From positions 660,001 to 692,000 of the forward strand of contig JAFGBS010000009.1 in assembly GCA_016933055.1 (NCBI GenBank): a DNA stretch of 32,000 nt. The letters run 5' to 3'. Below the pieces are notes generated by a model, which searched no databases, was not told the DNA's origin, and was given only the letters and a program-made list of their open reading frames with translations. The DNA comes from Promethearchaeota archaeon. Lineage in GTDB: Archaea > Asgardarchaeota > Lokiarchaeia > Sigyniarchaeales > Promethearchaeaceae. Positions 1 to 14,988 of the stretch are shown here, piece by piece. Position 1 is the first letter of the stretch. The number at the start of each line of letters is the position of its first letter. The position numbers and the translations under genes are program-made.

Positions 1-504
1 TAACGAAACTCCTGCCATCACCTTAGCCATCTTATCAGGTCTTGTATAGGGGGTTGTAATATCAGATATAATTGCTCTAATAATCGGGAGCTGACCACCG
101 AATACGCCATCTAATAATCGGGCTCCAATTACGATATAGATTCCATATGGTCCTTCTGCAAGAGCCAAAATGATAAAAGCTACGAATGTTCCGGCTTGAG
201 ATATAATAAGTATAGGTCTTCGACCGTATTTATCACTTAGTTTTCCCCATATCGGACCAAAAATCAAGGAGGTAAACGAGTTTGCACTGATAATTATCCC
301 AACCATGAATTTACTTGCTCCAAAGTAATCAGCGATGGTAGGTAAAAGTGGAAGAGTTAGCGTAAATCCCAAAACGTCCACAAGAATAGATAAAAATAAG
401 GCAAACATAAGAGACTTCTGATTAAGACCATAATTCTTTAAAACTTCATTCATTTCTTCGTCGGTCGTAATCTCGAGTTTGTGTTTGAAGTTTTCGTCTT
501 CCAT
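1..504 (-). CDS. MFS transporter, DHA1/TetA-like (3' end outside the window)
   Basis: Not in ORF track. Hand translation from ATG at 504 is open to base 1: MEDENFKHK...FALFLSILVDVLGFTLTLPLLP...GKLSDKYGRRP (MFS motif A)...ARLLDGVFGG. Confidence 0.85.
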   Translation of the reverse strand, partial: MEDENFKHKLEITTDEEMNEVLKNYGLNQKSLMFALFLSILVDVLGFTLTLPLLPTIADYFGASKFMVGIIISANSFTSLIFGPIWGKLSDKYGRRPILIISQAGTFVAFIILALAEGPYGIYIVIGARLLDGVFGGQLPIIRAIISDITTPYTRPDKMAKVMAGVSL

Positions 505-651
505 TTTTTTTATTATTGACCCCACTATAACAAACTTACGGATTGTGAGGATCATGTTACAGATTATTTGACACAGGAGATCAATCAACCAAACATACAC
601 GTGTATTATTAAAGGGATGACTCCTATGGTTATCTATCTTTCAAACAAAAA

Positions 652-1617
652 ATGGAAATGAGTAATATTATGGAATTGAAAGGTAGAAATGTTCTAGTCA
701 CGGGTGCTGCTGGTTTTATTGGGAGTCATCTTGCAGATCGTTTACTTGCTGAAGGAGCAAGAGTCACGGGAATTGATAATTTATCAGAGGGTTCTTTAGA
801 AAATCTTAAAAAATCACTTCAAGAAACCAATTTTAAATTTCATAAAGGAGATATTCGGGATAGAGAATTTCTGCACACAATTGTGGATAAGATTGATATC
901 ATTTTTCACCTTGCCGCATTCACCAGTGTTAGAAGATCCATATCCAATCCATTAGAGTGCAACGAAATTAATGTAACGGGGACGTTAAATCTCTTAGAAT
1001 TAGCTAGAAAATATGATGTCAATAAATTCATATATTCCTCAAGCGCTGCTGTATATGGTAATACACCTCAATTGCCTATTGATGAAGATGTTCAACCAAA
1101 ACCTTTATCCCCCTATGGCATATCTAAACTAACAGCGGAGCAATATGTTCTTATTTATAATGAACTGTATGATATTGAAACCACTGCATTACGATATTTC
1201 AATGTATATGGTCCTAGGCAAAAATTATCAGAATATTCTGGAGTTATCACAATATTCTTAGAACGATTGAAAAATCACCAAGATCTGGTTATCTATGGGG
1301 ATGGAAATCAGACTCGTGATTTCATCTATATAACAGATGTGGTAAATGCAAACCTGAAAGCTACTAAAACCAAAAGTCAGGGAAATATTTTTAATATTGC
1401 GACGGGAGACCGTATATCCATTCGAGAACTCGCAGAAATAATCGTAAAACAAAGTGGGAAATCCAATACGAAAATTATTCATGATCCCCCAAAACTGGGA
1501 GATATTATCCATAGTTATGCAAATATCGAAAAATCAAGACAAAAATTGGATTTTTCTGCACAAATATCCATCAATGAGGGATTGCGAAAGGTAATACAGT
1601 GGTATATGAAGAACTGA
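652..1617 (+). CDS. NAD-dependent nucleotide-sugar epimerase/dehydratase (extended SDR, GalE/WbpP-like)
   Basis: TGAAGFIG Rossmann motif, HLAA, SSSAAVYG, catalytic YGISK, LRYFNVYGPRQ, TRDFIYITD. Exact substrate cannot be determined; the start could be a slightly downstream Met. Confidence 0.9.
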   Translation: MEMSNIMELKGRNVLVTGAAGFIGSHLADRLLAEGARVTGIDNLSEGSLENLKKSLQETNFKFHKGDIRDREFLHTIVDKIDIIFHLAAFTSVRRSISNPLECNEINVTGTLNLLELARKYDVNKFIYSSSAAVYGNTPQLPIDEDVQPKPLSPYGISKLTAEQYVLIYNELYDIETTALRYFNVYGPRQKLSEYSGVITIFLERLKNHQDLVIYGDGNQTRDFIYITDVVNANLKATKTKSQGNIFNIATGDRISIRELAEIIVKQSGKSNTKIIHDPPKLGDIIHSYANIEKSRQKLDFSAQISINEGLRKVIQWYMKN

Positions 1618-1766
1618 CTTCTATGCTGTAATATCCAAAAATCTTTCTATGTAAGACATCGTACTTAAGTTCGCACTTCTGTCAATTTGCCAATCCTAAT
1701 TCCTACCATATAATTGAACAAATGAGAAAGACAAATTTATATAAAAATATAGAGAAACAGGAAAAA

Positions 1767-3431
1767 TTAGCTCAATTGCTCGTATAACTGAATTAATCGG
1801 TCTTTTACGACTTCACTACGATACTCCGGAAGTATTATAGGAGCATATTTCTTGGGTTTAAGATTTAGTGCATCCAGTGCTTTCATTGTATTATGCACAT
1901 GATTCAGAGTTAACTTTCGAGGTATAGAATTTTTCCTATATTCTTTCGCTGCTGTAATACCCGCTCTTCGACCAAAAACGTTGATTTCTAAAAGAGAGTT
2001 ACCCATTAACCGATTCTTACCATGCACTCCTCCTGAGACCTCCCCCGCAATAAGTAAACCCTTAATGCTTGAATAGCAGTTTGAATCAAGATCTACGCCA
2101 CCATTCTGATAGTGGAGTGTGGGATACACCAGAATCGGGTCCATAGTTATATCAATGTCAAAACGCTTGAACATTCTGTACATTGCACTAAGATTTTGCT
2201 GAATAGTACCTTTCCCTTTAAGTTCTTCAATCAGGGGACTATCTAACCAAATTCCTCGCATTCCTGTGGGAGTCTCAATGTAGTTGTGGGTTGTTGTACA
2301 AATTTTTATTAAAGATGCTGCCTCTACATCTCGTGGTTCTAACGGATAGCAGATTTGTATTCCATCTTTTCCAAGAACTTGCCCCCCCAAACTCCTTACT
2401 TTTTCAGTAACCAGTAAACCTACAATCTGTTCAGGGTAAGCAGCACCTGTTGGGTGGAATTGGGTTGAATCAAGATCTCGGAGTTTTGCTCCCGCTCGAT
2501 ATGCCATTACCACGCCATCCATGGTTGCACCGTAGTGATTTGTCGTTGCAAAGCCTCCCACATGTAAACGACCAAATCCTCCTGTTGCCATCACGACAAC
2601 TCTCGCTCGAACAACAAAATACCTTTTGGTTTCTATATTATACAATATAGCCCCTGTAACTCTCCCCGAATCATCTGTAAGTAATTCTATTGCAGGTGAG
2701 AATTCTAGATAAGGTATACCTTGATTAATGGCTTCATCTTTTAAGGTTCGGAATATTTCCATTCCGGTATAATCTTTCGCACAGTGCATTCGATTTCGAG
2801 AAGTACCCCCTCCGGGAACTTCCACAAAATTCCCATCATCATCACAATCATAATTAACACCGAGTTCTTTGTGCCATTTAATTACTTTAGGAGCATCTCC
2901 AACAAGAGCTTTTACAAGTTCAGGTTTATTTTCGAAATGACCGCCACCAATTGCATCTAAATAATGAATGTAGGGATTGTCTTCTAGTCGATCTGCTGCT
3001 TGAATGCCACCTTGAGCCATTACACTGTTACAATCTCCGAATCGTAATTTTGTAACAAGTAGTATGTCTTTCTTAGGAACATCCGAATATTTAGCCCATA
3101 AAACTGCGTTTGTTCCCGCTCCTCCTGCTCCAATAATCAATACTCCTACATCATAATCGATTTGATTTAGGTCTATATCGTTTGGGTTGATAATTGGATA
3201 ACTTTCCAAGACATCTGCTACTTCATTAGGCACATTGTCTCCCTTATTGGGACCCCATGAAATATTTCGTTTATATTTTGGATTATAATCGGGATGAAAT
3301 TGATCTAATACTATCTTTCGATCTTCCATGGTCAAATCAGCAATGATCTGATCTCGTCGCTTGTTTCGGGTTTTATTTACATTATCTATACTTCTACGCA
3401 TCTCTTCCGTATAACCACCAATCAGCTTCAT
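1767..3431 (-). CDS. frdA: Fumarate reductase/succinate dehydrogenase-family flavoprotein (TfrA/FrdA-like, soluble)
   Basis: IIGAGGAG FAD motif. Dicarboxylate-site motifs QFHPT, VTEKVRSLGG, EPRD, PTLHYQNGG, HGKNRLMGNSL. Start placed at ATG 3431 (MKLIGG), preceded by GGAGGAGGAG at 3441-3450; the track's 3473 start overlaps the upstream gene. Confidence 0.88.
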   Translation of the reverse strand: MKLIGGYTEEMRRSIDNVNKTRNKRRDQIIADLTMEDRKIVLDQFHPDYNPKYKRNISWGPNKGDNVPNEVADVLESYPIINPNDIDLNQIDYDVGVLIIGAGGAGTNAVLWAKYSDVPKKDILLVTKLRFGDCNSVMAQGGIQAADRLEDNPYIHYLDAIGGGHFENKPELVKALVGDAPKVIKWHKELGVNYDCDDDGNFVEVPGGGTSRNRMHCAKDYTGMEIFRTLKDEAINQGIPYLEFSPAIELLTDDSGRVTGAILYNIETKRYFVVRARVVVMATGGFGRLHVGGFATTNHYGATMDGVVMAYRAGAKLRDLDSTQFHPTGAAYPEQIVGLLVTEKVRSLGGQVLGKDGIQICYPLEPRDVEAASLIKICTTTHNYIETPTGMRGIWLDSPLIEELKGKGTIQQNLSAMYRMFKRFDIDITMDPILVYPTLHYQNGGVDLDSNCYSSIKGLLIAGEVSGGVHGKNRLMGNSLLEINVFGRRAGITAAKEYRKNSIPRKLTLNHVHNTMKALDALNLKPKKYAPIILPEYRSEVVKDRLIQLYEQLS

Positions 3432-3432
3432 T

Positions 3433-4167
3433 TTATTCGTCTCCTCCTCCTTTCTTCTGATCCATAAAATCACGTGTTGTATACCGTTCTTTCAGTTTTT
3501 TTTTATCTATAGTCATCAATTCTTGAAATCCCTCCTCATATTTCCCGTCTTCTAATTCTTTCACTCTGATTTCTAGATACTTCGGAGTAGGGATATTATA
3601 TTTTCCATGCAATCGACGTGCGAGCATCGCTACATGGTATTGAGGGATTTCTGCTGGACATCTTATAGTACAAAGCCCACATTGCACGCAATCAAATGAT
3701 TCTTCCGCGGCCTTTGCTAATTTTCCATGCAAACAGTCTTGGATATAATTCATAACATTGATTTCTTGAGGACAAACACGCGTACATGCATTGCATGATA
3801 AGCAGCGTGCCACTTCTGGGTAGTATCGAAGTATAGAGTTTGCAGAAGGGCGGAGATCGTCAATTTTATATTTTGGCTTAGGTGCAGGAACGAATGGTAA
3901 TTGAGTTAAAACCATTCCATCCTCTACGGGTGTTTGACAAGCGAGTGCTGCATATATTCTGAAGTCGCCAGCCTTTCTATAAACGGTTGAGCAAGCCCCA
4001 CAGAAACCTGCTCTACAACCCGCTCCACGAGTGATTTTAAACCCCGCATATTCCATTGCTTTCATAATGGTAAGGCCAGTAGGAACGTCATATCTGCTAC
4101 CCATTATATATATCCGAACTTTTTCTGGTTCAGCTGACTGCTTTGTTTCTGATTTCGTTTTTGACAT
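3433..4167 (-). CDS. frdB: FrdB/SdhB-like iron-sulfur subunit ([2Fe-2S] plus two CxxCxxCxxxCP clusters)
   Basis: GCRAGFCGAC...ALAC [2Fe-2S] motif; CLSCNACTRVCP and CVQCGLCTIRCP; immediately upstream of the flavoprotein. Confidence 0.82.
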   Translation of the reverse strand: MSKTKSETKQSAEPEKVRIYIMGSRYDVPTGLTIMKAMEYAGFKITRGAGCRAGFCGACSTVYRKAGDFRIYAALACQTPVEDGMVLTQLPFVPAPKPKYKIDDLRPSANSILRYYPEVARCLSCNACTRVCPQEINVMNYIQDCLHGKLAKAAEESFDCVQCGLCTIRCPAEIPQYHVAMLARRLHGKYNIPTPKYLEIRVKELEDGKYEEGFQELMTIDKKKLKERYTTRDFMDQKKGGGDE

Positions 4168-4177
4168 ATTAATCCTT

Positions 4178-5110
4178 TTATTTTGACTTCTTTCGACCTA
4201 TTAATCCTAATTCCTTCAAAAAAGGCTTTGGATTTACAAGGTGTTCTTCAAAATGATATAATTTCATTGGTTTAATACCCAAGGCAAGAGCCATGAGTTG
4301 TGTAAAATAAAATATCGGAAGACTATTCTTCATTTTTCCGTTTTTAATTAATTCTATTTGTTCATGTTCTAAATTATATCTGCACAAGGGACATGCAACA
4401 ATAATAGAATTTGCATTGCGTTTTTTTGCAGCATCAATGAGTGTATGCACTTGGATATTCACCAGATCTTCCTCTCCGACTATATGGTAACTCCCACAAC
4501 AGAATTTGAAAAAAGGCCAATCAATTACTTCTGCTCCTAATGCCTGTACGATACTTTCCATAACTGTGGGGGCTTCTTGATCATCAATCTTAGCAATTTC
4601 TGGATGTAACAGCATACATCCGTAATAAGAAGCGATACGCATACCTTTTAAAGGCTTTTCCACAGATTCCATGATCGTTTCATACCCAATATCATCCCGT
4701 AAAATTTCTAGGAAATGTTTTACTTCCATATCACCTTTGTATTCTAAATTATCATATTCTAATTGCCAATTGATGGGTTCTAATTTATCTGTATCTTCCT
4801 TAACTTCAGCGTTAACAATTTTTAACGTTGAATTACACATCGAACATAGGGTAACTACTTGCTTATGTATTACCTCTTTAGAAGAATTCTCGAGGTTTTT
4901 TACATGTTCCGCTGCTCTTGCCAAATTCCGAACGGGTGCAATTCTTTTCATTAGATTATCTGTAGTCTGTGTATGTATAGTGCCACAGCAATTCCATTCA
5001 GGCATTTCCACCAATTCAGCATTGAGCTTCTTGGATACTGCAATCGCCGTTTCTTCGAAACCTACTGAATTTGTTTTTAGATTACATCCGGGAAAATAGG
5101 AATATTTCAT
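4178..5110 (-). CDS. hdrB: Heterodisulfide reductase subunit B (two CCG domains)
   Basis: YFPGC...WNCCG...CSMC and YYGC...FCCG...CPLC, two complete CCG cysteine sets; next to hdrC. Confidence 0.92.
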   Translation of the reverse strand: MKYSYFPGCNLKTNSVGFEETAIAVSKKLNAELVEMPEWNCCGTIHTQTTDNLMKRIAPVRNLARAAEHVKNLENSSKEVIHKQVVTLCSMCNSTLKIVNAEVKEDTDKLEPINWQLEYDNLEYKGDMEVKHFLEILRDDIGYETIMESVEKPLKGMRIASYYGCMLLHPEIAKIDDQEAPTVMESIVQALGAEVIDWPFFKFCCGSYHIVGEEDLVNIQVHTLIDAAKKRNANSIIVACPLCRYNLEHEQIELIKNGKMKNSLPIFYFTQLMALALGIKPMKLYHFEEHLVNPKPFLKELGLIGRKKSK

Positions 5111-5127
5111 AATTGGATCCTTTCCGT

Positions 5128-5541
5128 TTATAATTCGGATTTCTTTCGGTAACTACCTACTAAAGCTATATTAGGTAGATTCTTTTTCATTTCATCCGTT
5201 AATTCTATGCGTTTTAATCTTTCTGGCTCATTTCGTAATGTATATTCTCTCACGGCTTCCATTACAGCAGCAATGTCAACCTCTCTCGGACACCTTACAG
5301 TACATGTTAAACACGAACTACATACCCACGGAGAATTTGCACTCAATACCTTTTCTTTTTGACCAGTTTTTATATAGCTAATCACTTGATTTACGGTAAG
5401 ATCCATTTTGTATACAAATGCACATCCAGAACTGCATTTGCCGCAATCATAACAAAGATACACATTTGATCCAGATATCTCTTCTATAGTATCGATGAAT
5501 TTCAAAGCTTCCTTATCCATCTTGATATACTCAAAGGGCAT
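5128..5541 (-). CDS. hdrC: Heterodisulfide reductase subunit C (2x[4Fe-4S])
   Basis: CYDCGKCSSGC and WVCSSCLTCTVRCPREVD; size and position next to hdrB. Confidence 0.9.
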   Translation of the reverse strand: MPFEYIKMDKEALKFIDTIEEISGSNVYLCYDCGKCSSGCAFVYKMDLTVNQVISYIKTGQKEKVLSANSPWVCSSCLTCTVRCPREVDIAAVMEAVREYTLRNEPERLKRIELTDEMKKNLPNIALVGSYRKKSEL

Positions 5542-6034
5542 TAAATAATACCTCTCTTTTGTTTAATATCTTCCTAATCTGATTATATACAGTTTTCTGT
5601 ATTGATTTTAATTGATTTCGAATTTCAGGACTCAATGTGTCACTGAACTCCTGCACATATTGTATTTCTATCCCAATTATCGTAATTTTTTCTTTAGGGG
5701 GTATATTTTTAAATGTCTGATAACCCCATTCAAGTGCGGTAAAAAAATCCATGTTATGAAAATCTGATACATGGTGCGCACTTAAAAATTGGTCTGGGTG
5801 TAAAACTCTCACGGTTCCGGGGCGATTTTTTTCCGTAATTATTGAATCTATAATTATTACTTGATCATAGCTTTGAAATAATTCCACTAAACCGATTCCT
5901 GACAGGGATACATCTGGTTGGATTTTCACATTAGGAGAAAAGAGATTAGTTTGTTGTAACCATTCTACTATTTTGATGCCAATAGCATCGTCTCCCACTA
6001 TTGGATTTCCCAAACCGATGATCAGAGTTTTCAT
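5531..6034 (-). CDS. [NiFe]-hydrogenase maturation endopeptidase (HybD/HycI family)
   Basis: N-terminal IIGLGNPIVGDDAIG motif, VIIIDS, SAHH; directly downstream of the large subunit. Confidence 0.88.
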   Translation of the reverse strand: MKTLIIGLGNPIVGDDAIGIKIVEWLQQTNLFSPNVKIQPDVSLSGIGLVELFQSYDQVIIIDSIITEKNRPGTVRVLHPDQFLSAHHVSDFHNMDFFTALEWGYQTFKNIPPKEKITIIGIEIQYVQEFSDTLSPEIRNQLKSIQKTVYNQIRKILNKREVLFNAL

Positions 6035-6035
6035 A

Positions 6036-7523
6036 TTAATTCAATCGCTTTAATTCTCGTATTTTGTTTTTATTTTCGTCATAGATTTCGACGACCATTG
6101 GCATATGCCCATACATTGCGTGAGTTGCGCAAGCTAAACAAGGATCGTACGCTCTAAATGCCATCTCGATTTTATTTAAATCATCCTCATTATATTGGCC
6201 AGCATGAACCATTGCCTCCGCTGCTTGTTTCACGCTGATACAAATGGGACCATTATTATTCGTGGTAGCTACGATGATATTTGCTTTGATGACTTTTCCC
6301 TCATCATCAGTTTTATAATGATGATACAGCGTTCCTCGAGGGGCTTCTATCACACCTACACCCTCACCTGTTATATTTTTCTTTTCCACGGGGATTCGAT
6401 AATCATTGGAATAAATATCCTTGTCTTCTGCGAGTTCAACCATCCTCTCACCGCAATGCAAAATCTCAATTAAACGAGCCCAGTTAAACCCTAAGGTGTG
6501 GTGGGCAGGTTTTCCACCAAATACCTCATACATGTGTTGCATAGCTTCATTTGCAAGTGGAGTTTTAATATTATCAACAACATTAAGGCGTGCAAGTGAG
6601 TTCACTCTATATATTCCGCTGTCGGGACCATATACCAACCCTTTCCATCCTATTTTTTTCAAGAAGGGGAATTTTAAATAAGTCCATGGTTCTACATGCT
6701 CTGCTATGTAATCAAGGTAGTCTTTCGCTTCGAACTTGAATTTTTCCTTTCCATTACTATCCACAACTCTTACTATATTGCTATGGTAAAAATCTAATGC
6801 ATTATCATCGTCAACGACCGACATATAGTAGGAATCCATTTTGTATGCGTCAGAATTGATGAGATTCATCATCTTCTTGTTTTTTCGAACCTCTTGTTCC
6901 CATACTTCTAATCCTAATTGTCCAAATTCAACAATATATTTCCCCCATTTCCATAGTTTTTCTGCATCCTCCTTAGTAATACCTTTACTAATTCCCCCTG
7001 GTAATGCGGTTACGGGATGGGTCGCTTTTGCTCCGGTCATTGCTTGTGCTTCTTGGGCATAGGCACGCGCTCGTATTGCTTTTTTAGCAACTTCGGGAAA
7101 TTGATGTGCAATCCCTAATATATTATGAGTTCCTGGTTTGGATTTTTCACCTAAAATAAGATCTGGAAGAGCGAATGCATAATAGTGAAGGATATGACTA
7201 TGTACTACATGTGCCAAAGCCATAATTTCTCGTAACATTTTTCCCGTTTTAGGAGGTTCAACATTATATATCTGATCGGCAGCTTTTGCAGGAGCCAAAT
7301 GATGGGGGGTTGGACATACGCCACAAATACGGGGAGTTATCCTTAATACTTCTTCTATGGGCCTACCTTGCAAGAACCGTTCAAAGCCACGTAATTCTAC
7401 TACTTGATAATATGCATTCTCAACTCTACCTGCATTATTCAATAAAATCGTAATTTTCGCCAATCCTTCTAAGCGAGTAACAGGGTGTATTGTGACAATA
7501 TTTTTGGTTTTCTTCTTATCCAT
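6036..7523 (-). CDS. mvhA: Group 3c [NiFe]-hydrogenase large subunit MvhA
   Basis: VTRLEG, L1 RICGVCPTPH, EAPRGTLYHHY, L2 RAYDPCLACATH followed by a cleavable C-terminal tail; context with mvhD/G and hdrABC. Confidence 0.93.
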   Translation of the reverse strand: MDKKKTKNIVTIHPVTRLEGLAKITILLNNAGRVENAYYQVVELRGFERFLQGRPIEEVLRITPRICGVCPTPHHLAPAKAADQIYNVEPPKTGKMLREIMALAHVVHSHILHYYAFALPDLILGEKSKPGTHNILGIAHQFPEVAKKAIRARAYAQEAQAMTGAKATHPVTALPGGISKGITKEDAEKLWKWGKYIVEFGQLGLEVWEQEVRKNKKMMNLINSDAYKMDSYYMSVVDDDNALDFYHSNIVRVVDSNGKEKFKFEAKDYLDYIAEHVEPWTYLKFPFLKKIGWKGLVYGPDSGIYRVNSLARLNVVDNIKTPLANEAMQHMYEVFGGKPAHHTLGFNWARLIEILHCGERMVELAEDKDIYSNDYRIPVEKKNITGEGVGVIEAPRGTLYHHYKTDDEGKVIKANIIVATTNNNGPICISVKQAAEAMVHAGQYNEDDLNKIEMAFRAYDPCLACATHAMYGHMPMVVEIYDENKNKIRELKRLN

Positions 7524-8528
7524 TTATTTATCCTCCTTGTCAGAATGCAATTTTGAAATTAGAGAACTTCCATAAGTAAACCGATAAAACGTTCCTAATG
7601 GATCAGGAATACGTTGCACAATTTTCTCCAGTTGTTCTTCGGTCATTCCTTCTTCCGTATCCACTTCGAGCAAAGAAGTTAATGCTGAAATCATTTTTAA
7701 TCCATGGTCTTTAACTTTAACTGTCGGTCCCATGCACCCACGACATCCTACATTCATTTTTGTGCATAACGCTCCGCATCCTGAGCGAGTGGCTGGACCC
7801 ATACATATAATTCCTTGAGGAATCAAACATTTATCTGGATCGATTTTTTTGGTTTCTTGAGGTGAGAAAAATGCATGATAAGAAATTTGCTCGGGTTTTT
7901 CTCGACCGCATTCCTCACATAAAGTTCCCTCTCCAGCAATTACAGTTCCTTTGGGTGGTAATGTTCCTGTTTCCGAAAATTTCTTTAATACATCAACCAC
8001 CTTCTCAATTAATGGTACCATTGGGGGGCATCCTGGAACATAATAATCGACATCTATCACAGAGTTCAATGCACCAGCATCTTTGAGCATTTTAGGTAAA
8101 GTTAATTCATCCCCGCTCTTCAATTCTATTATCTCAAGAGGCACGGTTCCTTGTGGATTGTCCATGGATGGAACTTGTTCATACACTAAGTCAAATAATG
8201 ATTGATCATATGGTAAATTATCTAAACTTGGAATACCACCAAAATTAGCGCATGCGCCGAATGCTACAACAACCTTAGCTTTCTTTCGGAGAATTTCAGC
8301 CATTTCTAGGTCTTCTGATGTTCGTATAGCTCCATGATAAATGCCAATATCCACTTCTCCATCCTCCAAAGCAAGCAAGTCGTCAATTTTGAAATCCATT
8401 GCTGTGGGCCAAAATACAAACTCGCATAAATCGTCAACTTCGAATATTTTCTCGTTCAAATCAAGGATTGCAACGTCGCAACCTGCACATGTCGCTCCTA
8501 AAACAATTGCAGTCTTCAATTTCGCCAT
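7524..8528 (-). CDS. mvhG: Group 3c [NiFe]-hydrogenase small subunit MvhG
   Basis: CAGC, FGACANFGGIP, PGCPP and a C-terminal Cys cluster (CEEC...CMGPATRSGCGALC...GCRGCMGP). Confidence 0.93.
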   Translation of the reverse strand: MAKLKTAIVLGATCAGCDVAILDLNEKIFEVDDLCEFVFWPTAMDFKIDDLLALEDGEVDIGIYHGAIRTSEDLEMAEILRKKAKVVVAFGACANFGGIPSLDNLPYDQSLFDLVYEQVPSMDNPQGTVPLEIIELKSGDELTLPKMLKDAGALNSVIDVDYYVPGCPPMVPLIEKVVDVLKKFSETGTLPPKGTVIAGEGTLCEECGREKPEQISYHAFFSPQETKKIDPDKCLIPQGIICMGPATRSGCGALCTKMNVGCRGCMGPTVKVKDHGLKMISALTSLLEVDTEEGMTEEQLEKIVQRIPDPLGTFYRFTYGSSLISKLHSDKEDK

Positions 8529-8977
8529 TATCTCTTTCCTCCTTTACGGTATGGCTCTAAATACTTAAGATCTTCCACCATTTCAGTAGTAATTTTCGCA
8601 AATTTGGCAGCTTCCGTAGCAGATATCCATTCCAGTCGAAATCGTTTAGGATTCACTCCAATCTGTTCAAGTAGTTTGGATAAAATAGTCATACGTTTGT
8701 AAGCTTTATAATTGCCGGTTTTATAGTGACAATCTCCAAGGTGGCAACCCGTGATTAAGACCCCATCCGCACCTTCTAAAAATGCTTCAATAACTAGTTG
8801 AGGATCAATTCGTGATGAACAATTTACCATAATAGGAAGCACATTTGGAGGATATTGTAACCGAGATGTTCCAGCTAAGTCTGCACCTTTTCCAGAACAC
8901 CATCTGCATAAGAACATTATAATTTTCGGGTTGGTATTTTTAATTTCCTTATGGGATCGCTGCATTGTGGATGTCAT
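8528..8977 (-). CDS. mvhD: Methyl-viologen-reducing hydrogenase subunit D ([2Fe-2S])
   Basis: CRWCS..GADLAGTSRLQYPP, CSSRID, GADGVLITGCHLGDCHY, RFRLEWISATE. Confidence 0.94.
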   Translation of the reverse strand: MTSTMQRSHKEIKNTNPKIIMFLCRWCSGKGADLAGTSRLQYPPNVLPIMVNCSSRIDPQLVIEAFLEGADGVLITGCHLGDCHYKTGNYKAYKRMTILSKLLEQIGVNPKRFRLEWISATEAAKFAKITTEMVEDLKYLEPYRKGGKR

Positions 8978-10947
8978 TGTGCCATTTCCTCCCCTTTCAA
9001 AAGCGCCTTAATGCTTGCGCTGATGGACCTATAGGTAGAATTCTTCAGCTCAATGCTCCCCGATGGGCATGCAGCAGCACAAGAACCACACCCCTCACAT
9101 AATGCTTCACGAATCAGCACCTTATTTGATGTAGAATCATAATAGATAGCGCCGTATGGGCATACATGGATACAGGTATGGCATTTACCGCATGTTGTTT
9201 GTTCAATTTCAGCAATTTGTGGTGGTCTTTCCAAGGTTTTGTGAGATAATATTGTAATAGCTTTCGCTGCGGCTGCAGAAGCATTAGAAACTGTTTCAGG
9301 AATATCTTTGGGCCCAGATGCGGTTCCTGCAACAAATACTCCTGAAATTGCTGTTTCCACTGGTTTTAATTTCGGGTGTGCTTCTTTAATAAATCCTATA
9401 CTATCACATGATAATTTTAGAATACTAGAAATTTCTTTTGTTCCCTCACTTGGGATCAATCCATTTGCAAGAACGACCATGTCTGCATGTAATTCTACAC
9501 CTTCTCCCGCAATAGTGTTTACACCTCGAATTAAGATTCTATTTCCATCTTGTAATAGTTCCGAGACTTTTCCTCGAATATATATTACTCGTTCTTCTTC
9601 AGCAGCACGCTTATAAAATTCCTCATAATCCTTTCCGGCCGTTCGAACGTCGATATAAAAATTAATTGCCGTAGCATTGTGATTTAGGTGTTTAAATTGT
9701 AATGCATGCTTTGTTGCGTACATACAACAAATTTTCGAACAATAAGGAAGATGTTTAGCTGGATCTCGTGAACCCGTACAGTGAATGAATACAACCGTTT
9801 CAGGTTCCTTTCCATCGGATGGACGACGAATCACACCCGCAGTAGGACCGTTAGCTGACAATAAGCGTTCAAATTCTAAACCAGAAATTACATCTGGTAT
9901 GAGTCCATATCCATATTCCCCAATACTTTCGATTGGATAGGGTTCATAACCAGTAGCGACGATAATAGCGCCAAACGTATCTTCCATAATTTCCCCTCTC
10001 ATATCAAAATCCACTGCATCTTGTTCACATACTTCGGCGCATTTACTACAGATAAGAGGGTCAATTCCCAAGCAAGTTTTTGGGTCGATAACATAATAAG
10101 CGGGGACTGCTTGAGGGAATGCGATATAGATTGCTTTGCGGGGGGATAATCCCATATTGTATTCATCATGTACGACGACGGGACAAACCTCAACACAATC
10201 ATTACACATATTACACATTTCAGTGACATATCTGGGATTTTTACGGATTCTAACTTTAAAATTCCCTACAAATCCATCTACCACTTCTACTTCGGCACAT
10301 GTTAGAAGTTCAATTTTAGGATGATGACTTACCGCAACCATTTTTGGAGTTAATATACATTGCGAACAGTCAAGAGTTGGAAAAGTTTCGGCCAGTTGGG
10401 ACATGTGTCCACCAATTGAACTGGCTTTTTCGATTAGGGTCACATCATAACCCGAATCCGCAATGTCTAACGCAGATTGAATCCCTGCAATCCCTCCGCC
10501 TATAACAAGCGCTTTTTGTGTTACTGGGATCTCTAATGCAGTCAGAGGTGTATTCATTTTAACTCGCTCAATTGCAGATTCGATAATCTTGACGGCTTTA
10601 TTGGTCGCATCTTCTTTATTTTCATGCACCCAACTTACTTGCTCCCGAATATTAGCCATTTCTAATAGATAGGGATTCAAATCCGCTTCTTTTGTAGCAG
10701 ACATAAATGTTGGTTCATGCATATCACGTGAGCAAGCCGCTACTACCACTCTATTCAAATCTTTACTATGAATTGCCTCTTTCAGTAGATTTTGCCCAGG
10801 ATCGGAACACATATACATGTTTTCTTCTATAAAAGCAACATCATGCTTCTTTTTTATCTCTTCAATTGCTTTATCGATATCTACTGTGTGTGCAATATTT
10901 CTTCCACACCGACAAATAAACACCCCGATTCTTTTTTCCTCTGACAA
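8974..10947 (-). CDS. hdrA: Heterodisulfide reductase subunit A (bifurcating FAD/Fe-S subunit)
   Basis: IGVFICRCG, CSDPGQ, MANIREQVSWVH, VIGGGIAG, TFPTLDCSQC, HCTGSRD...CSKICC, inserted and C-terminal ferredoxin domains. TTG start. Confidence 0.95.
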   Translation of the reverse strand: MSEEKRIGVFICRCGRNIAHTVDIDKAIEEIKKKHDVAFIEENMYMCSDPGQNLLKEAIHSKDLNRVVVAACSRDMHEPTFMSATKEADLNPYLLEMANIREQVSWVHENKEDATNKAVKIIESAIERVKMNTPLTALEIPVTQKALVIGGGIAGIQSALDIADSGYDVTLIEKASSIGGHMSQLAETFPTLDCSQCILTPKMVAVSHHPKIELLTCAEVEVVDGFVGNFKVRIRKNPRYVTEMCNMCNDCVEVCPVVVHDEYNMGLSPRKAIYIAFPQAVPAYYVIDPKTCLGIDPLICSKCAEVCEQDAVDFDMRGEIMEDTFGAIIVATGYEPYPIESIGEYGYGLIPDVISGLEFERLLSANGPTAGVIRRPSDGKEPETVVFIHCTGSRDPAKHLPYCSKICCMYATKHALQFKHLNHNATAINFYIDVRTAGKDYEEFYKRAAEEERVIYIRGKVSELLQDGNRILIRGVNTIAGEGVELHADMVVLANGLIPSEGTKEISSILKLSCDSIGFIKEAHPKLKPVETAISGVFVAGTASGPKDIPETVSNASAAAAKAITILSHKTLERPPQIAEIEQTTCGKCHTCIHVCPYGAIYYDSTSNKVLIREALCEGCGSCAAACPSGSIELKNSTYRSISASIKALLKGEEMAQ

Positions 10948-10963
10948 TGTTCTCTACTTTCCC

Positions 10964-11506
10964 TCATCCTTTATGATTCTTGCCAAGATTGAATGCCTTG
11001 ATATTATTTTCAATAAATCGAGCTCGAACCTTATCTTTCATAACTTTCATAAAATCTTTTTCTTTAAACAAATCCGTATTAGCACACACATATCCCAACA
11101 TACAGATGTTCGCGTAAAGCTTACTTCCGAGGGTTTCTGCTAATGCAGTTGCAGGTATCTTAAAAATCTTAGATGCCTTCTTTGCATGAGCATCTAAGAT
11201 AACCAGATCTTCCTCCACAAACATAACTCCCCTTTCCTTCATTCTTCCTATATATTTTGTATATGCTTCTTCTGACATACAAACGAAATAATCATAATGA
11301 GTTGCTTTAGGAAAATCAATTTCGGTAGTATCAATTACGACATCCGAACTGCTTGCTCCTCCTCTACTTTCCGGTCCATAGGATTGAGTCATGATTGCAG
11401 TCTTTCCCTTTTCGTGCAATGCAATTGTTTCACCCACAAGCCGACCCATGAGGGCTATGCCTTGCCCTCCAAATCCCGCAAATCGCACTTCAATACGATC
11501 CGACAC
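10964..11506 (-). CDS. korC: 2-oxoacid:ferredoxin oxidoreductase gamma subunit
   Basis: FAGFGGQGI, QSYGPESRGGASSSDV, NICMLG. GTG start. Confidence 0.9.
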   Translation of the reverse strand: MSDRIEVRFAGFGGQGIALMGRLVGETIALHEKGKTAIMTQSYGPESRGGASSSDVVIDTTEIDFPKATHYDYFVCMSEEAYTKYIGRMKERGVMFVEEDLVILDAHAKKASKIFKIPATALAETLGSKLYANICMLGYVCANTDLFKEKDFMKVMKDKVRARFIENNIKAFNLGKNHKG

Positions 11507-11509
11507 TAT

Positions 11510-12379
11510 CTACAACTCCGGTTTTACATTTTTCGCCATTTTATGCAGGCGTAATAAATTATCAGTTAAAGTTGGTTTTTGGATCTCCACAAATTTTCCT
11601 ACAATAATCGGACCATCCTTTTGTATTTGTGCTTTCATGGGATCAATTCCGTGTTGGAGAATCGTTCTATTTTTAAAGTTCTCTAATATGGTTAAACCAT
11701 CTCGTAGTTGGTTTCTACGACCATATGTGGTTGGGCATGCTCCTAGAATTTCAACAAATGAGAATCCTTTATGCAATAAAGCCTCGACGAAACTTTCTTT
11801 CATTCTTCGAACATCTAAAGCTGTCCAGCGGGAGACATACGTTGCACCACACGAAGCTGCAAGCGCTGGGAGGTTAAAAGGCTCCTCTATATTACCGTAT
11901 GGGCTGGTTGTTTGATATTGCCCAATATAGCTCGTTGGTCCTACCTGACCTCCTGTCATTCCATATTGAAAATTATTCACACAAAAAACTGTAATATCCG
12001 CATTCCTTCGAGCAGCATGAATTAAGTGATTTCCACCAATGGACGCGATATCTCCATCCCCGGAGATAACAATCACCTTTCGGTTCGGATCAGTAATGCC
12101 TAAACCAATAGCGAAGGGGAGAGCTCGACCATGAGTAGTATGAAAAGAGTCGAAATTTAGATATCCCGCAGCTCTCCCCGTGCATCCAATACCTGAGACT
12201 ATGGCGATATTTTTGGGGTCAATTTCGGATTCGATGATAGCTTCAATAACTACGGTCGTTATACTTCCCAGTGAGCAACCCGAGCACCATATATGTGGAA
12301 TTCGACCGGGTCGTAAATAGGAGTCCAAGGGATGGGCTTCTGCATCTAAAATCATACTATTTGATTCTTTCTTAATCAT
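11510..12379 (-). CDS. korB: 2-oxoacid:ferredoxin oxidoreductase beta subunit (TPP-binding)
   Basis: WCSGC, SGIGCTGR, HTTHGRA, SGDGD, NNFQYGMTGGQ, CPT. Confidence 0.92.
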   Translation of the reverse strand: MIKKESNSMILDAEAHPLDSYLRPGRIPHIWCSGCSLGSITTVVIEAIIESEIDPKNIAIVSGIGCTGRAAGYLNFDSFHTTHGRALPFAIGLGITDPNRKVIVISGDGDIASIGGNHLIHAARRNADITVFCVNNFQYGMTGGQVGPTSYIGQYQTTSPYGNIEEPFNLPALAASCGATYVSRWTALDVRRMKESFVEALLHKGFSFVEILGACPTTYGRRNQLRDGLTILENFKNRTILQHGIDPMKAQIQKDGPIIVGKFVEIQKPTLTDNLLRLHKMAKNVKPEL

Positions 12380-13548
12380 ATCTTTTCCTCCATTTCTTTT
12401 AGGATCTCTGCGGGTGTGTGTATTGATCCCCCCAATTTGAGTATTCCATATACATCCGCCTTCTGTTTTGCTGCAGCTCTTTGTACTTCCCGAGTGATTT
12501 GTCCATTATTAATTTCCACAACAAATATTACTTTGGCTTTTTTTGCCATTTCTTGTATTGCTTCATCCGCAAAAGGCCATATTGTAATTAATCGCAACAA
12601 TCCCGCTTTTATTCCTTTATTACGGGCAAGATTTACAGCACCTTTCGCTGCACGTGAGCTTATACCAAACGAAATTAAAACATATTCTGCATCTTCCAGC
12701 AAATATTCTTCAAATTTAATAATATCGTTCTTGTTCAGTAAAATTTTATTACATAAGCGTTTTACAATCTTTTTCTGCGCGCTGGCGTTTATAACCGGGT
12801 ATCCTCTTGCATCATGAGTGAGTCCAGTTGTGATAGTTCGATATCCCTCTCCAGCTACGGCCATTGGAGGAATTAGATCTTTATCGGCTTCGTATGGAAG
12901 ATGTATTTGTTGTCCGGGTTTATCAGATGGCTTTTTGCGATTCAATCTCTTTACTTGACTTCTTTTTGGGATTACTAATCGTTCACTCATATGCCCAATG
13001 GTTTCATCCATCAATATGGTTACTGGAACACGATATTTTTCCGCATAATTAAACGCATCTATTGCTAAATCGAAACATTCTTGAACGCTATTTGGGGAAA
13101 GTGCTATAATTTCATAATCTCCATGAGACCCCCAACGTGCTTGTTGAACATCCTGCTGACCGACTAAGGTGGGTAATCCAGTCGATGGCCCCCCCCGTTG
13201 CACATTAACAATTACACAAGGGGTTTCCATCATCACCCCGAGACCAATATTCTCCACCATAAGAGAATACCCAGGACCAGAAGTTGCTGTGCAGGATTTC
13301 CATCCTCCCCAACTGGCGCCAAGAACTGAAGCGATTGAGGCTAATTCATCCTCAAATTGCACAAAATGTCCTCCCACTTGCGGGAGACGTTCTGCCATAT
13401 GCTCCGCCACTTCTGAACTCGGTGTAATTGGATATCCTCCAAAGTACTTGCATCCCGCAGCTAGGGATCCTTCTGCAACAGCAAGATTTCCAGTTGTGAA
13501 ATATTCTCCAGTTAATATATCCGGAATTTCTTCAGTTTTCTTACTCAC
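12376..13548 (-). CDS. korA: 2-oxoacid:ferredoxin oxidoreductase alpha subunit
   Basis: TGNLAVAEG, YPITPSSE, QFEDELAS, TATSGPG, NVQRGGPSTGLPT. GTG start overlapping the korD stop (GTGA). Confidence 0.92.
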   Translation of the reverse strand: MSKKTEEIPDILTGEYFTTGNLAVAEGSLAAGCKYFGGYPITPSSEVAEHMAERLPQVGGHFVQFEDELASIASVLGASWGGWKSCTATSGPGYSLMVENIGLGVMMETPCVIVNVQRGGPSTGLPTLVGQQDVQQARWGSHGDYEIIALSPNSVQECFDLAIDAFNYAEKYRVPVTILMDETIGHMSERLVIPKRSQVKRLNRKKPSDKPGQQIHLPYEADKDLIPPMAVAGEGYRTITTGLTHDARGYPVINASAQKKIVKRLCNKILLNKNDIIKFEEYLLEDAEYVLISFGISSRAAKGAVNLARNKGIKAGLLRLITIWPFADEAIQEMAKKAKVIFVVEINNGQITREVQRAAAKQKADVYGILKLGGSIHTPAEILKEMEEKI

Positions 13549-13856
13549 TTTTTCTCCCCCTTATCAGGTATTTTAACGAATATTGCAAATTCTGGACAAA
13601 TTAACTCGCAAAAATGACATTCTGCACATTCATCAAACGAATCTCCTTTCTTTAATCGAGGTGGATGGAAACCCTTTTGGTTGATCTCATCTGAAACTTC
13701 AAGAATTTGTTCTGGACAATAATTTATACAAAATCCACATTCTTTGCAACGTGATTTTATTACAAATATTTGAGGTTTTGCATGACTCCACTTATCTAAA
13801 TCAACGAAAGCGGGCCATTCTGCTTTCTTCTTCTTGCGATCAAAACTTGCATTCAT
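13545..13856 (-). CDS. korD: 2-oxoacid:ferredoxin oxidoreductase delta subunit (2x[4Fe-4S] ferredoxin-like)
   Basis: CKECGFCINYCP and CAECHFCELICPEFAI; first gene of the operon. Confidence 0.88.
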   Translation of the reverse strand: MNASFDRKKKKAEWPAFVDLDKWSHAKPQIFVIKSRCKECGFCINYCPEQILEVSDEINQKGFHPPRLKKGDSFDECAECHFCELICPEFAIFVKIPDKGEKK

Positions 13857-13916
13857 TTCTACTGATCCTGCTGGATGGTTGGTTCACTGATGGTAACCTA
13901 AAGCAAATTCTTGTTT

Positions 13917-13932
13917 CTTATAAGTTTTATTA
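13917..13932 (-). promoter_or_regulatory. Candidate BRE/TATA box of the kor-hdr-mvh-frd operon
   Basis: Minus strand reads TAATAAAAC-TTATAAG, about 60 nt upstream of the korD ATG: purine-rich BRE-like run directly before TTATAA. Confidence 0.5.
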
Positions 13933-13950
13933 AGATGAGCGAGCGGTAAA

Positions 13951-13970
13951 ATTCCCATTATTATGGGAAT
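13951..13970. promoter_or_regulatory. Perfect inverted repeat ATTCCCAT-N4-ATGGGAAT (candidate operator)
   Basis: 8-bp arms at 13951-13958 and 13963-13970 in the divergent intergenic region, about 27 nt upstream of the candidate TATA. Function is inferred. Confidence 0.45.
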
Positions 13971-14253
13971 AAGTCATCATCTGTGTCTCGATTAGTTAAC
14001 ATTACTTCGTATGTGGATTATATAAAATTATTATACTTTGAGTAATCATATTTCACCGAGGTTAAAGAAAATTAAAAGAATCTTAATGCATCCGATCTAA
14101 AAAATGAATAAGCATCTTAGCACATTGCTTTTAAAAAAGCAGATATTTTATTAAAGGTTAAATTACTGCATCTTTCAAATAGATCTGAAAAAAAAACCAA
14201 CAATCCTAACGTCACATATATACTTAAATAATTTCCAAAGTTTTAATATAGTT

Positions 14254-14988
14254 ATGAGTTCTCGAACCACGATAGCATATAAACCTTTAATTAATGCAGG
14301 TACCGCTATTTTAACCATAAGATTATTTACAACAATTTATTCTGGGTCTATAATAATATTGGTTGTTCTTATACCATCGATTTCTTCAATTCTTTCTATT
14401 CTTCTGCAAGTTCCTACTTACATTGGGTTCTTAGCTAGTCTGTTATTGTTAATATTCATTCTCAAAACATTCCAACGAATGGAAATAGACCCTAGAATAA
14501 CATCAGATAATAAAAACAGAATAAAAGTTGGTAAAATATCTACACTCATTTTAATAATCATTCTTTCATTAGTTGGCATATTCTACATGGTAGTCGTTAT
14601 TTTCTATGTTGAGCTAAGTCTCATAACTCTATCGGAAATAATGGCATATATTTTGATCTATTCATTGATTGTTCTTGAGATAATAAATGGGATCTTCGTC
14701 ATAATCACCTTTGTATGTTTAAGCAAGATCCTTTGGGGGTTTGATGATCTAGTGGAATTAAGGATCTTTCTCCATTTTACAAGATGGTATGGGATTTTTG
14801 TTGCAATAGGTCAATTGATTGCTGGCATAACTCTAATTGTTCTCTTACCTACAGGTAGTACTGTATTTATAGAGATACTCTTAATTGTATCTCTTACCAG
14901 TTCAATTTTTACTGGTATAGCCGGAATTTTCCAAATTGTTATTGCTATCGGATTCATCTTAATTGGAAGACGACTAAACATCTCTTAA
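14254..14988 (+). CDS. Hypothetical integral membrane protein (about 6 TM segments)
   Basis: 244-aa ORF, almost wholly hydrophobic segments; fills the gap and is followed by a T-tract at about 14995-15001. No family recognised. Confidence 0.7.
   Translation: MSSRTTIAYKPLINAGTAILTIRLFTTIYSGSIIILVVLIPSISSILSILLQVPTYIGFLASLLLLIFILKTFQRMEIDPRITSDNKNRIKVGKISTLILIIILSLVGIFYMVVVIFYVELSLITLSEIMAYILIYSLIVLEIINGIFVIITFVCLSKILWGFDDLVELRIFLHFTRWYGIFVAIGQLIAGITLIVLLPTGSTVFIEILLIVSLTSSIFTGIAGIFQIVIAIGFILIGRRLNIS

Follow-up and report, generated by a model that had tools for sequence, protein, structure and literature searches.

Outside methanogens, what soluble heterodisulfide reductase (Hdr) complexes coupled to Mvh or Flx modules reduce is a long-standing question, and the same complexes hold a central place in metabolic models for Asgard archaea and many uncultured anaerobes. 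In methanogens, MvhADG-HdrABC reduces CoM-S-S-CoB, the disulfide of coenzymes M and B (CoM and CoB), and TfrAB re-oxidizes the thiols as a thiol:fumarate reductase (Heim et al. 1998, as cited in PMC11237513). Rubin-Blum et al. 2019 described the gene order frdB-frdA-hdrC-hdrB-korDABC-hdrA-flxDCBA-aclBA-idh from tubeworm symbionts and Thioflavicoccus mobilis as "cluster 1" of the reductive tricarboxylic acid (rTCA) cycle, and hypothesized one complex that bifurcates electrons to a 2-oxoglutarate:ferredoxin oxidoreductase (OGOR) and a fumarate reductase (PMC6315080). The "succinate operon" of the succinate producer Pseudoclostridium thermosuccinogenes comprises fumarase, Flx-Hdr, and fumarate reductase genes; the proposal is that succinate formation is coupled there to the reduction of ferredoxin (PMC7282089, and the Koendjbiharie and van Kranenburg 2019 preprint cited there). 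Archaeal papers mention Tfr beside Hdr in passing only, with CoM and CoB assumed (PMC9635834; PMC9723677), and no discussion of Tfr or fumarate was found in a survey of HdrA contexts (PMC12054007). Here, we analyzed a stretch of 32,000 nucleotides (the window) from a Promethearchaeota archaeon, positions 660001-692000 of contig C17 (JAFGBS010000009.1) in a genome of 3.76 Mb and 36 contigs that is 91% complete, and describe a cluster of 13 genes, korD to frdA, that combines kor, hdr, mvh, and frd genes. No description of this Mvh-driven 13-gene layout was found in the literature; the concept itself has been published, for bacterial versions driven by NADH. A first-pass annotation could not say whether the layout had been described; it is not undescribed, with an NADH-driven counterpart in PMC6315080 and an Flx-Hdr-linked fumarate reductase proposed in PMC7282089.

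The korD-frdA gene cluster

On balance, the 13 genes (window 1767-13856) probably form one operon for H2-driven fumarate reduction by a soluble enzyme with flavin-based electron bifurcation, accompanied by a 2-oxoacid synthase that uses ferredoxin. In the list of open reading frames (ORFs), they are consecutive on the minus strand in the 5'->3' order korD, korA, korB, korC, hdrA, mvhD, mvhG, mvhA, maturation protease, hdrC, hdrB, frdB, and frdA, and profile matches to Pfam and NCBIfam, read with their curated cut-offs, identified the genes and bore out the order given in the first-pass annotation. The 12 junctions from korD to frdA measured -4, -4, +3, +16, -4, -1, 0, +1, -11, +17, +10, and +1 nt, the last of these only with frdA starting at ATG 3431 (554 aa). 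This start, with GGAGGAGGAG just before it, is plausible from the sequence and replaces the ORF-finder's GTG 3473, which would overlap frdB by 41 nt. With the correction, the annotated gaps of at most 17 nt or overlaps were reproduced (-11 to +17 nt), and the Shine-Dalgarno motifs annotated in upstream C-termini were recovered as GGAGG-type purine-rich motifs within the 3' end of the preceding gene for most genes. Because of this tight packing and the conserved order of the genes, we infer that all 13 are co-transcribed.

The last gene, frdA (1767-3431), encodes a fumarate reductase-like flavoprotein of 554 aa with the FAD and capping domains of that fold and with PF00890 (FAD_binding_2) as its only Pfam match. 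The C-terminal PF02910 domain was missing, with the chain stopping approximately 60 aa past the last FAD segment, and a conserved N-terminal extension of approximately 95 aa preceded the FAD motif, its HPDY motif and other residues being invariant in 36 homologues. We aligned FrdA with E. coli FrdA and NadB, the host genome's SdhA and NadB, and Syntrophobacter fumaroxidans FrdA. The dicarboxylate catalytic set of E. coli FrdA (H232, T244, E245, R287, H355, and R390) corresponded to H326, T342, E343, R346, H440, and R474, and was invariant in E. coli FrdA and the 36 homologues, which span two domains of life. At the position of the covalent-FAD His (E. coli FrdA His44) stood an Asn, from which a non-covalent FAD is predicted. 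The AlphaFold model (predicted local distance difference test, pLDDT, 85.8) had E. coli FrdA as its best match in the PDB, with a template modelling (TM) score of 0.66, and its modelled fold is the FrdA/SdhA fold. Against the TfrA model NF004900, FrdA scored 294 bits (cut-off 718), with only model positions 6-421 of 546 matched. An identity as L-aspartate oxidase (NadB) was rejected, the position of NadB Glu121 (E. coli numbering) being Gly in FrdA; the aligned residue was Phe in S. fumaroxidans FrdA, E. coli FrdA, and host SdhA, and Glu in both NadB proteins. FrdA reached 241 bits with the NadB model TIGR00551 (cut-off 453), and the host genome's true NadB reached 692 bits.

Next to frdA, frdB (3433-4167) encodes a 244-aa Fe-S subunit with an SdhB-type [2Fe-2S] motif and two CxxCxxCxxxCP [4Fe-4S] motifs, and its 12 ligand Cys were kept in 77 of 77 family members. 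Inspection of motifs and domains found neither a [3Fe-4S] site in FrdB, the distal motifs all having four Cys, nor a CCG domain, and no membrane anchor gene was present among the 13 genes. The hdrB-like gene (FrdE/SdhE-like, 4178-5110) matched PF02754 twice and has two complete CCG motifs, which would bind two non-cubane [4Fe-4S] clusters; each of its 10 Cys was kept in 58-59 of 59 members, and it scored 156 bits with the HdrB model and 142 bits with the SdhE model. The hdrC-like gene (FrdF-like, 5128-5541) encodes a protein of 137 aa with two [4Fe-4S] clusters (Fer4_8/Fer4_17; CoB_CoM_SS_C, 61 bits), whose 8 Cys were each kept in 54-55 of 55 members. Both HdrB and HdrC fell far below the curated equivalog cut-offs, which belong to methanogen models. 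The TfrB model was split between two neighbors, its N half matching FrdB (E 1.5e-9) and its C half HdrB (E 2.8e-7). By these matches, the module resembles a Tfr divided among FrdA, FrdB, and HdrB, with HdrC in addition, and since the natural fusion TfrB covers both the FrdB and HdrB types, the two would be expected to work together.

All six MvhADG-HdrABC subunit types were present, with cofactor motifs intact. The FAD/Fe-S flavoprotein HdrA, the presumed bifurcation site, is encoded at 8974-10947 with a TTG start and matched the HdrA2 model NF040770 at 785 bits over model positions 1-643, and other HdrA models at 632 and 604 bits. Following it are mvhD (8528-8977; PF02662 FlpD, E 1e-50; VhuD, 115 bits), for the [2Fe-2S] connector between hydrogenase and HdrA, mvhG (7524-8528; Oxidored_q6; VhuG, 172 bits), for the [NiFe]-hydrogenase small subunit, and mvhA (6036-7523; NiFeSe_Hases; VhuA, 414 bits), for a group-3c-type large subunit. 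The Ni-Fe ligands of MvhA were intact (RICGVCPTPH and DPCLACATH, then a 27-aa C-terminal tail for cleavage), and a hydrogenase maturation endopeptidase is encoded at 5531-6034 (PF01750 HycI; TIGR00072 at 92.6 bits, passing its cut-off).

At the head of the cluster, korDABC provides a complete delta-alpha-beta-gamma set of a four-subunit 2-oxoacid:ferredoxin oxidoreductase (OFOR) with thiamine pyrophosphate (TPP) and Fe-S domains. The delta subunit gene korD (13545-13856) is ferredoxin-like with two [4Fe-4S] clusters (Fer4 families), and among NCBIfam models OGOR_delta matched it best, with 56 bits (cut-off 125). The alpha subunit gene korA (12376-13548; POR_N and PFOR_II) passed the 411-bit cut-off of the generic 2-oxoacid model NF006412 with 546.7 bits and stayed under the 579-bit cut-off of the OGOR alpha model NF007206 with 394.6 bits; its PDB matches included 1yd7 (392 bits) and the OGOR 8ys5 (270 bits), and its named relatives there are OGORs. 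The TPP-binding beta subunit gene korB (11510-12379; TPP_enzyme_C) matched 2-oxoglutarate ferredoxin oxidoreductase beta best, at 234 bits against a cut-off of 364, and the gamma subunit gene korC (10964-11506) matched PF01558 POR and NF006323 (169 bits). Judged from such scores, the direction and substrate of Kor appear to be the weakest links of the scheme proposed below.

The spacer before korD (13857-14253, minus strand) is AT-rich (GC 0.29), spans 397 bp, and has TATA-like elements such as AAAACTTATAAG approximately 60-70 nt ahead of the korD ATG. Directly 3' of the frdA stop lies a T-rich tract (TAATTTTTCCTGTTTCTCTATATTTTTAT...; 1720-1766, minus strand). Read from the sequence, these are a putative operon promoter region and a putative archaeal terminator. 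A scan for sigma-70 promoters and hairpin terminators, which does not cover archaeal signals, found sites no commoner than in shuffles, and sense-strand T-runs within the cluster were at chance level (12 observed, 12.8 +/- 3.6 in shuffles); no hint of internal signals came from either. Sequence words of the cluster, searched for in sequencing runs, were present in two DNA metagenomes, one of them probably the source sample, and next to absent from two metatranscriptomes of the same study. Divergent from the promoter region is a 244-aa ORF (14254-14988, plus strand) that matched no Pfam family and is located in the window's most AT-rich kilobase (GC 0.29). Downstream, frdA is followed in the window by a convergent NAD-dependent epimerase/dehydratase gene (652-1617) and in the two Heimdall-type loci checked by a histidine-phosphatase-family gene (L006:11725-12294; L013:11726-12292), so the downstream border of the unit differs.

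Conservation, host genome, and origin

We scanned one genome per species for relatives of FrdA, obtaining 216, of which 80 loci were analyzed by matching all 13 window proteins against them; counts for hdrA, mvhD, kor, and mvhA use the 45 loci whose upstream sequence extends for 7 kb or more. Among informative loci, frdB adjoined frdA in 73 of 74, and hdrC and hdrB stood immediately upstream of frdBA in 50 of 63. Further, hdrA was present in 35 of 45 loci, mvhD in 34, kor in 15, and mvhA in 13. The carriers included Heimdall-, Thor-, and Njord-labelled Asgard metagenome-assembled genomes (MAGs), Methanofastidiosa, Thermoplasmata, Bathyarchaeia, Culexarchaeia, and Korarchaeia-like Thermoproteota among archaea and Caldisericota, WOR-3, Desulfobacterales, and Syntrophobacteraceae among bacteria. 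By gene order and sequence, the four genes hdrC-hdrB-frdB-frdA make up a conserved module. The in-frame TAA codons flagged for three homologues proved to be nothing but terminal stops.

Linkage to kor was found with varying gene order in Heimdall, Bathyarchaeia (L026), Thermoplasmata (L032), two Nitrososphaerota-labelled loci (L051 and L052), and a Crenarchaeota-labelled locus of Thermoproteota (L055), and it also recurs in Gammaproteobacteria. The synteny search that the first-pass annotation had called for thus turned up a kor-hdr-frd linkage conserved across phyla, and its recurrence in different gene orders speaks for a linkage that is selected for and not simply inherited. Heimdall loci of the AB_125 type have the order korABC, FlxDCBA, then hdrA-hdrCB-frdBA, with FlxDCBA (an MvhD-like protein, two Fe-S proteins, and a FAD_binding_6/NAD_binding_1/DHODB Fe-S protein; L001-L007 and L039, approximately 2600-5950) in place of mvhDGA and the kor and hdrA-hdrCB-frdBA genes retained. 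Judged by gene content, the electron-donor module is interchangeable, Mvh or Flx, on one core. Loci L010 and L013 read korC-hdrA-mvhDGA-hdrA-protease-hdrCB-frdBA (approximately 470-7450 in each locus). Their hdrA copy before mvhDGA was 77% and the copy before protease-hdrCB-frdBA 63% identical to the window's hdrA, and the window retains only the first type, as a compact single-hdrA Mvh version.

A physiological anchor comes from Syntrophobacteraceae, where a single-contig genome has the same four genes in the same order at 4.979-4.983 Mb (FrdA 51%, FrdB 54%, HdrB 39%, and HdrC 39% identical to the window), this locus being the sole copy in that genome at E <= 1e-100. It fits frdABEF of S. fumaroxidans MPOB (Sfum_4092-4095), its position being as expected among 4,098 protein genes, and in the FrdA tree, S. 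fumaroxidans FrdA falls together with the family's other sequences from Syntrophobacteraceae. In S. fumaroxidans, transcript and protein of frdABEF go up when fumarate is the electron acceptor, and succinate is oxidized with the membrane enzyme SdhABC, not FrdABEF (PMC5947623). FrdABEF was published as an anchor-less "type E" enzyme and has not been purified (PMC5947623). By analogy, this response is the best available evidence that the FrdA family reduces fumarate.

The host is a non-methanogen by gene content, as annotated; in the genome, at 91% completeness, McrA had no match and ComA reached 19.5 bits, under its cut-off. CdhC of the Wood-Ljungdahl pathway was found. A separate tricarboxylic acid cluster on contig C16 (124000-143000; locus L081) carries acnA, an FMN-dehydrogenase-like gene, fumC, sdhB-sdhA, and a two-subunit korB-korA, with sucC-sucD, aclB/aclA-like genes of the ATP-citrate lyase (ACL) type, and icd divergent from them, and an Mdh/Ldh-family gene was also present in the genome. 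Of the genes that the first-pass annotation proposed to look for, sucCD, fumarase, and an Mdh-like gene were therefore present, together with aconitase, ATP-citrate lyase, and icd, whereas CoM synthesis was not detected. The Sdh- and Kor-type enzymes of the window are thus not the genome's only ones: the C16 SdhA is canonical (TIGR01812, 736 bits, passing its cut-off), and the Frd and Kor of the window are extra paralogues with at most 30% identity to the C16 copies, in a genome with approximately 8 OFOR alpha subunits. No membrane anchor was noticed with the C16 SdhAB. Between acnA and fumC, the FMN-dehydrogenase-like gene (L081:4410-5504, minus strand) encodes a 364-aa protein, of which models of FMN-dependent L-lactate dehydrogenase/oxidase match the C-terminal ~140 residues only and which might be a malate or 2-hydroxyacid dehydrogenase. 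Elsewhere (C11:129000-172100 and C2:95600-97950), hdrA-mvhD pairs occur three more times in the genome, and there is a second [NiFe] hydrogenase of Mvh-like type, with an HdrB-like CCG gene ahead of both its small- and its large-subunit gene; this hydrogenase, too, may be wired to Hdr.

A Heimdall-type donor is the probable source of the operon, through a transfer that was probably not recent. The PheRS-alpha gene of the window (22632-24188) was nearest to Promethearchaeota (60-63% identity, Heimdall/Hod only ~53%), in line with the Asgard host annotated, and the host genome seems to be of the Loki lineage; FrdA was 79% identical to Heimdallarchaeota-labelled proteins and nested in their clade with support of 100/98 and 100/100. 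With this query, FrdA was not found in 6 genomes of the same family and 69 of the same order; of 28 genomes in a family that shares only its phylum with the host, 25 gave a match. The GC content of the cluster was 0.39 (genome, 0.353) and its GC at third codon positions (GC3) was ordinary and native-like, so composition lends no support to a recent transfer. It is the nesting of FrdA among Heimdallarchaeota, with a Promethearchaeota-like PheRS-alpha and native-like GC3, that suggests an old one.

Proposed electron flow and rival explanations

Complex formation, fumarate as the substrate, bifurcation, direction, and the substrate of Kor are what we infer for the operon. In the proposed scheme, MvhAG would oxidize H2 and MvhD would relay the electrons to the flavin of HdrA. 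From there, the high-potential pair would run through HdrC (two [4Fe-4S]), HdrB (two non-cubane clusters), and FrdB ([2Fe-2S] and two [4Fe-4S]) to the FAD of FrdA, predicted to be non-covalent, where fumarate would be reduced to succinate and would stand in for the CoM-S-S-CoB of methanogens. The low-potential pair would go to ferredoxin, or to KorD directly, and KorDABC would most likely carboxylate succinyl-CoA reductively to 2-oxoglutarate. Both the operon and the broad conservation of its hdrCB-frdBA core suggest that the high-potential acceptor is fumarate. If this is true, fumarate reduction would be energy-conserving and ferredoxin-generating without a membrane step and, with Kor, both difficult reductions of the reverse tricarboxylic acid cycle or of its reductive branch would be supplied. 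With standard potentials of -414 mV for H2, +30 mV for fumarate, and approximately -500 mV for ferredoxin, the arithmetic gives approximately -69 kJ for 2 H2 + fumarate + oxidized ferredoxin, and the 1:1 electron stoichiometry of the two sinks put forward in the first-pass annotation is arithmetically correct.

The route to fumarate put forward there was of the Tfr type, a two-enzyme shuttle in which MvhADG-HdrABC would reduce a disulfide and FrdBA, as a thiol:fumarate reductase, would re-oxidize the thiols. Methanogen Mvh-Hdr and TfrAB work in this way, the Asgard papers cited above assume it, and HdrB keeps both CCG motifs; however, FrdB lacks the CCG domain that oxidizes thiols in TfrB, the operon has one HdrB only, and FrdA fails the TfrA equivalog cut-off. 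With McrA not found and ComA below its cut-off, a CoM/CoB shuttle is unlikely, and we regard a thiol shuttle of any kind as distinctly so. Because FrdB has no CCG domain, there is only one HdrB, the TfrB fusion exists, and no CoM genes were found, a direct Fe-S wire from HdrA through HdrC, HdrB, and FrdB to FrdA and fumarate appears the more likely route. Still less probable is the reverse, confurcating mode, also raised in the annotation, in which oxidation of 2-oxoglutarate, yielding reduced ferredoxin, and oxidation of succinate would be joined at HdrA to deliver H2 to a syntrophic partner. Group 3c hydrogenases with Hdr are reversible in principle, the 1:1 stoichiometry fits as well, the four-gene module occurs in syntrophic propionate oxidizers, and an H2-evolving Hdr-Mvh has been proposed for MK-D1 and other Asgard archaea (PMC9723677). 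The Asn at the covalent-FAD position and the thermodynamics disfavor it, however, the reaction costing approximately +69 kJ at standard state and approximately +12 kJ even at 1 Pa H2, as does the use of SdhABC for succinate oxidation in S. fumaroxidans. Enzymes with non-covalent FAD, such as His44 mutants of E. coli FrdA and soluble fumarate reductases, reduce fumarate and hardly oxidize succinate.

Two further explanations concern what the genes do together. The clustering could serve ferredoxin and H2 balancing only, with the FrdA-like protein acting on another unsaturated or dicarboxylic acid, or HdrB on a disulfide with FrdBA as accessory, and Kor on another 2-oxoacid. The divergence of the FrdA family (a new N-terminal domain, no C-terminal domain, and sub-cut-off scores), the ~8 OFOR alpha subunits and canonical SdhAB and KorAB elsewhere in the genome, and a KorA that passes the generic 2-oxoacid model only all speak for this. 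It nevertheless seems unlikely to us, if less so than the thiol shuttle, in view of both carboxylate-binding His/Arg pairs and the proton-donor Arg, which are invariant across two domains, the response of the S. fumaroxidans orthologue to fumarate, the OGORs as nearest named Kor relatives, and the like gene sets in rTCA clusters and in the operon of a succinate producer. Alternatively, Kor could be a mere neighbor with its own transcript and hdrA to frdA alone belong together, given that kor occurs in a minority of the informative loci, that just one junction is wider than the 16 nt between korC and hdrA, and that hdrA has a TTG start. Every spacer is too short for a promoter, however, and with kor linkage recurring in archaeal and bacterial groups (Heimdall, Bathyarchaeia, Thermoplasmata, Nitrososphaerota/Thermoproteota, and Gammaproteobacteria) we consider this separation very improbable.

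Several observations weigh against the bifurcating fumarate reductase that we favor. FrdA is under every curated cut-off by a wide margin, with TfrA the best match, and diverges most among the genome's three paralogues. OGOR models are the best specific matches for KorA, KorB, and KorD, yet each match is under its cut-off. HdrB keeps complete disulfide-site motifs and could still act on a thiol or disulfide. Bifurcation is not intrinsic to the four-gene module, since Syntrophobacteraceae have it without hdrA, and because contig C16 holds SdhAB, a two-subunit Kor, sucCD, fumC, and aclBA, the enzymes of the operon could act on other substrates. The operon appears to be an H2-driven Asgard variant of a published type of system. 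The first-pass interpretation as a whole is partly supported.

A bolder version of the favored reading, to which we give little credence, is that the 12 structural gene products make up one soluble, thiol-free super-complex in which HdrA would feed KorD directly, without free ferredoxin, and FrdA via HdrCB-FrdB. If true, H2 would drive the two hardest reductive tricarboxylic acid steps, the reduction of fumarate to succinate and the carboxylation of succinyl-CoA with CO2 to 2-oxoglutarate, and the question of what "heterodisulfide reductases" reduce in non-methanogens would be answered.

Comparison with known systems

FrdA keeps the dicarboxylate-binding and catalytic residues of canonical complex II (SdhABCD/FrdABCD), whereas PF02910, the covalent-FAD His, the [3Fe-4S] cluster, and an anchor gene in the operon are all missing. 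With Methanothermobacter TfrAB, the window shares a soluble, anchor-less organization, an Fe-S subunit with [2Fe-2S] and two [4Fe-4S] clusters, and an HdrB-type CCG module, and TfrAB likewise serves a reductive tricarboxylic acid branch together with Kor. Unlike TfrAB, in which TfrB is fused, the window splits FrdB from HdrB and adds HdrC, the FrdA termini differ, and FrdA fails the TfrA model. Methanogen MvhADG-HdrABC offers the same six subunit types, intact motifs, and presumed bifurcation logic; in contrast, the window has FrdBA added, a short HdrC (137 aa), and no CoM/CoB/Mcr context in the genome.

Other comparable systems are bacterial. S. fumaroxidans FrdABEF has the same hdrC/frdF, hdrB/frdE, frdB, and frdA in identical order and in one clade, also without a membrane subunit, but stands alone, without hdrA, mvh, or kor. 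The succinate operon of P. thermosuccinogenes, compared by its description, shares an Hdr-linked fumarate reductase, whereas its donor is NADH (Flx) and Kor is absent. Compared by gene content, the rTCA "cluster 1" has the four-subunit Kor, HdrA, HdrC, HdrB, and separate FrdB and FrdA, co-directional with a donor module, and the tubeworm symbionts, like the archaeal host, have a second, two-subunit Kor elsewhere in the genome. The window differs from that cluster in its gene order, in having ACL in a different cluster, and in using the MvhADG [NiFe]-hydrogenase with its protease where "cluster 1" has the NADH-dependent FlxABCD.

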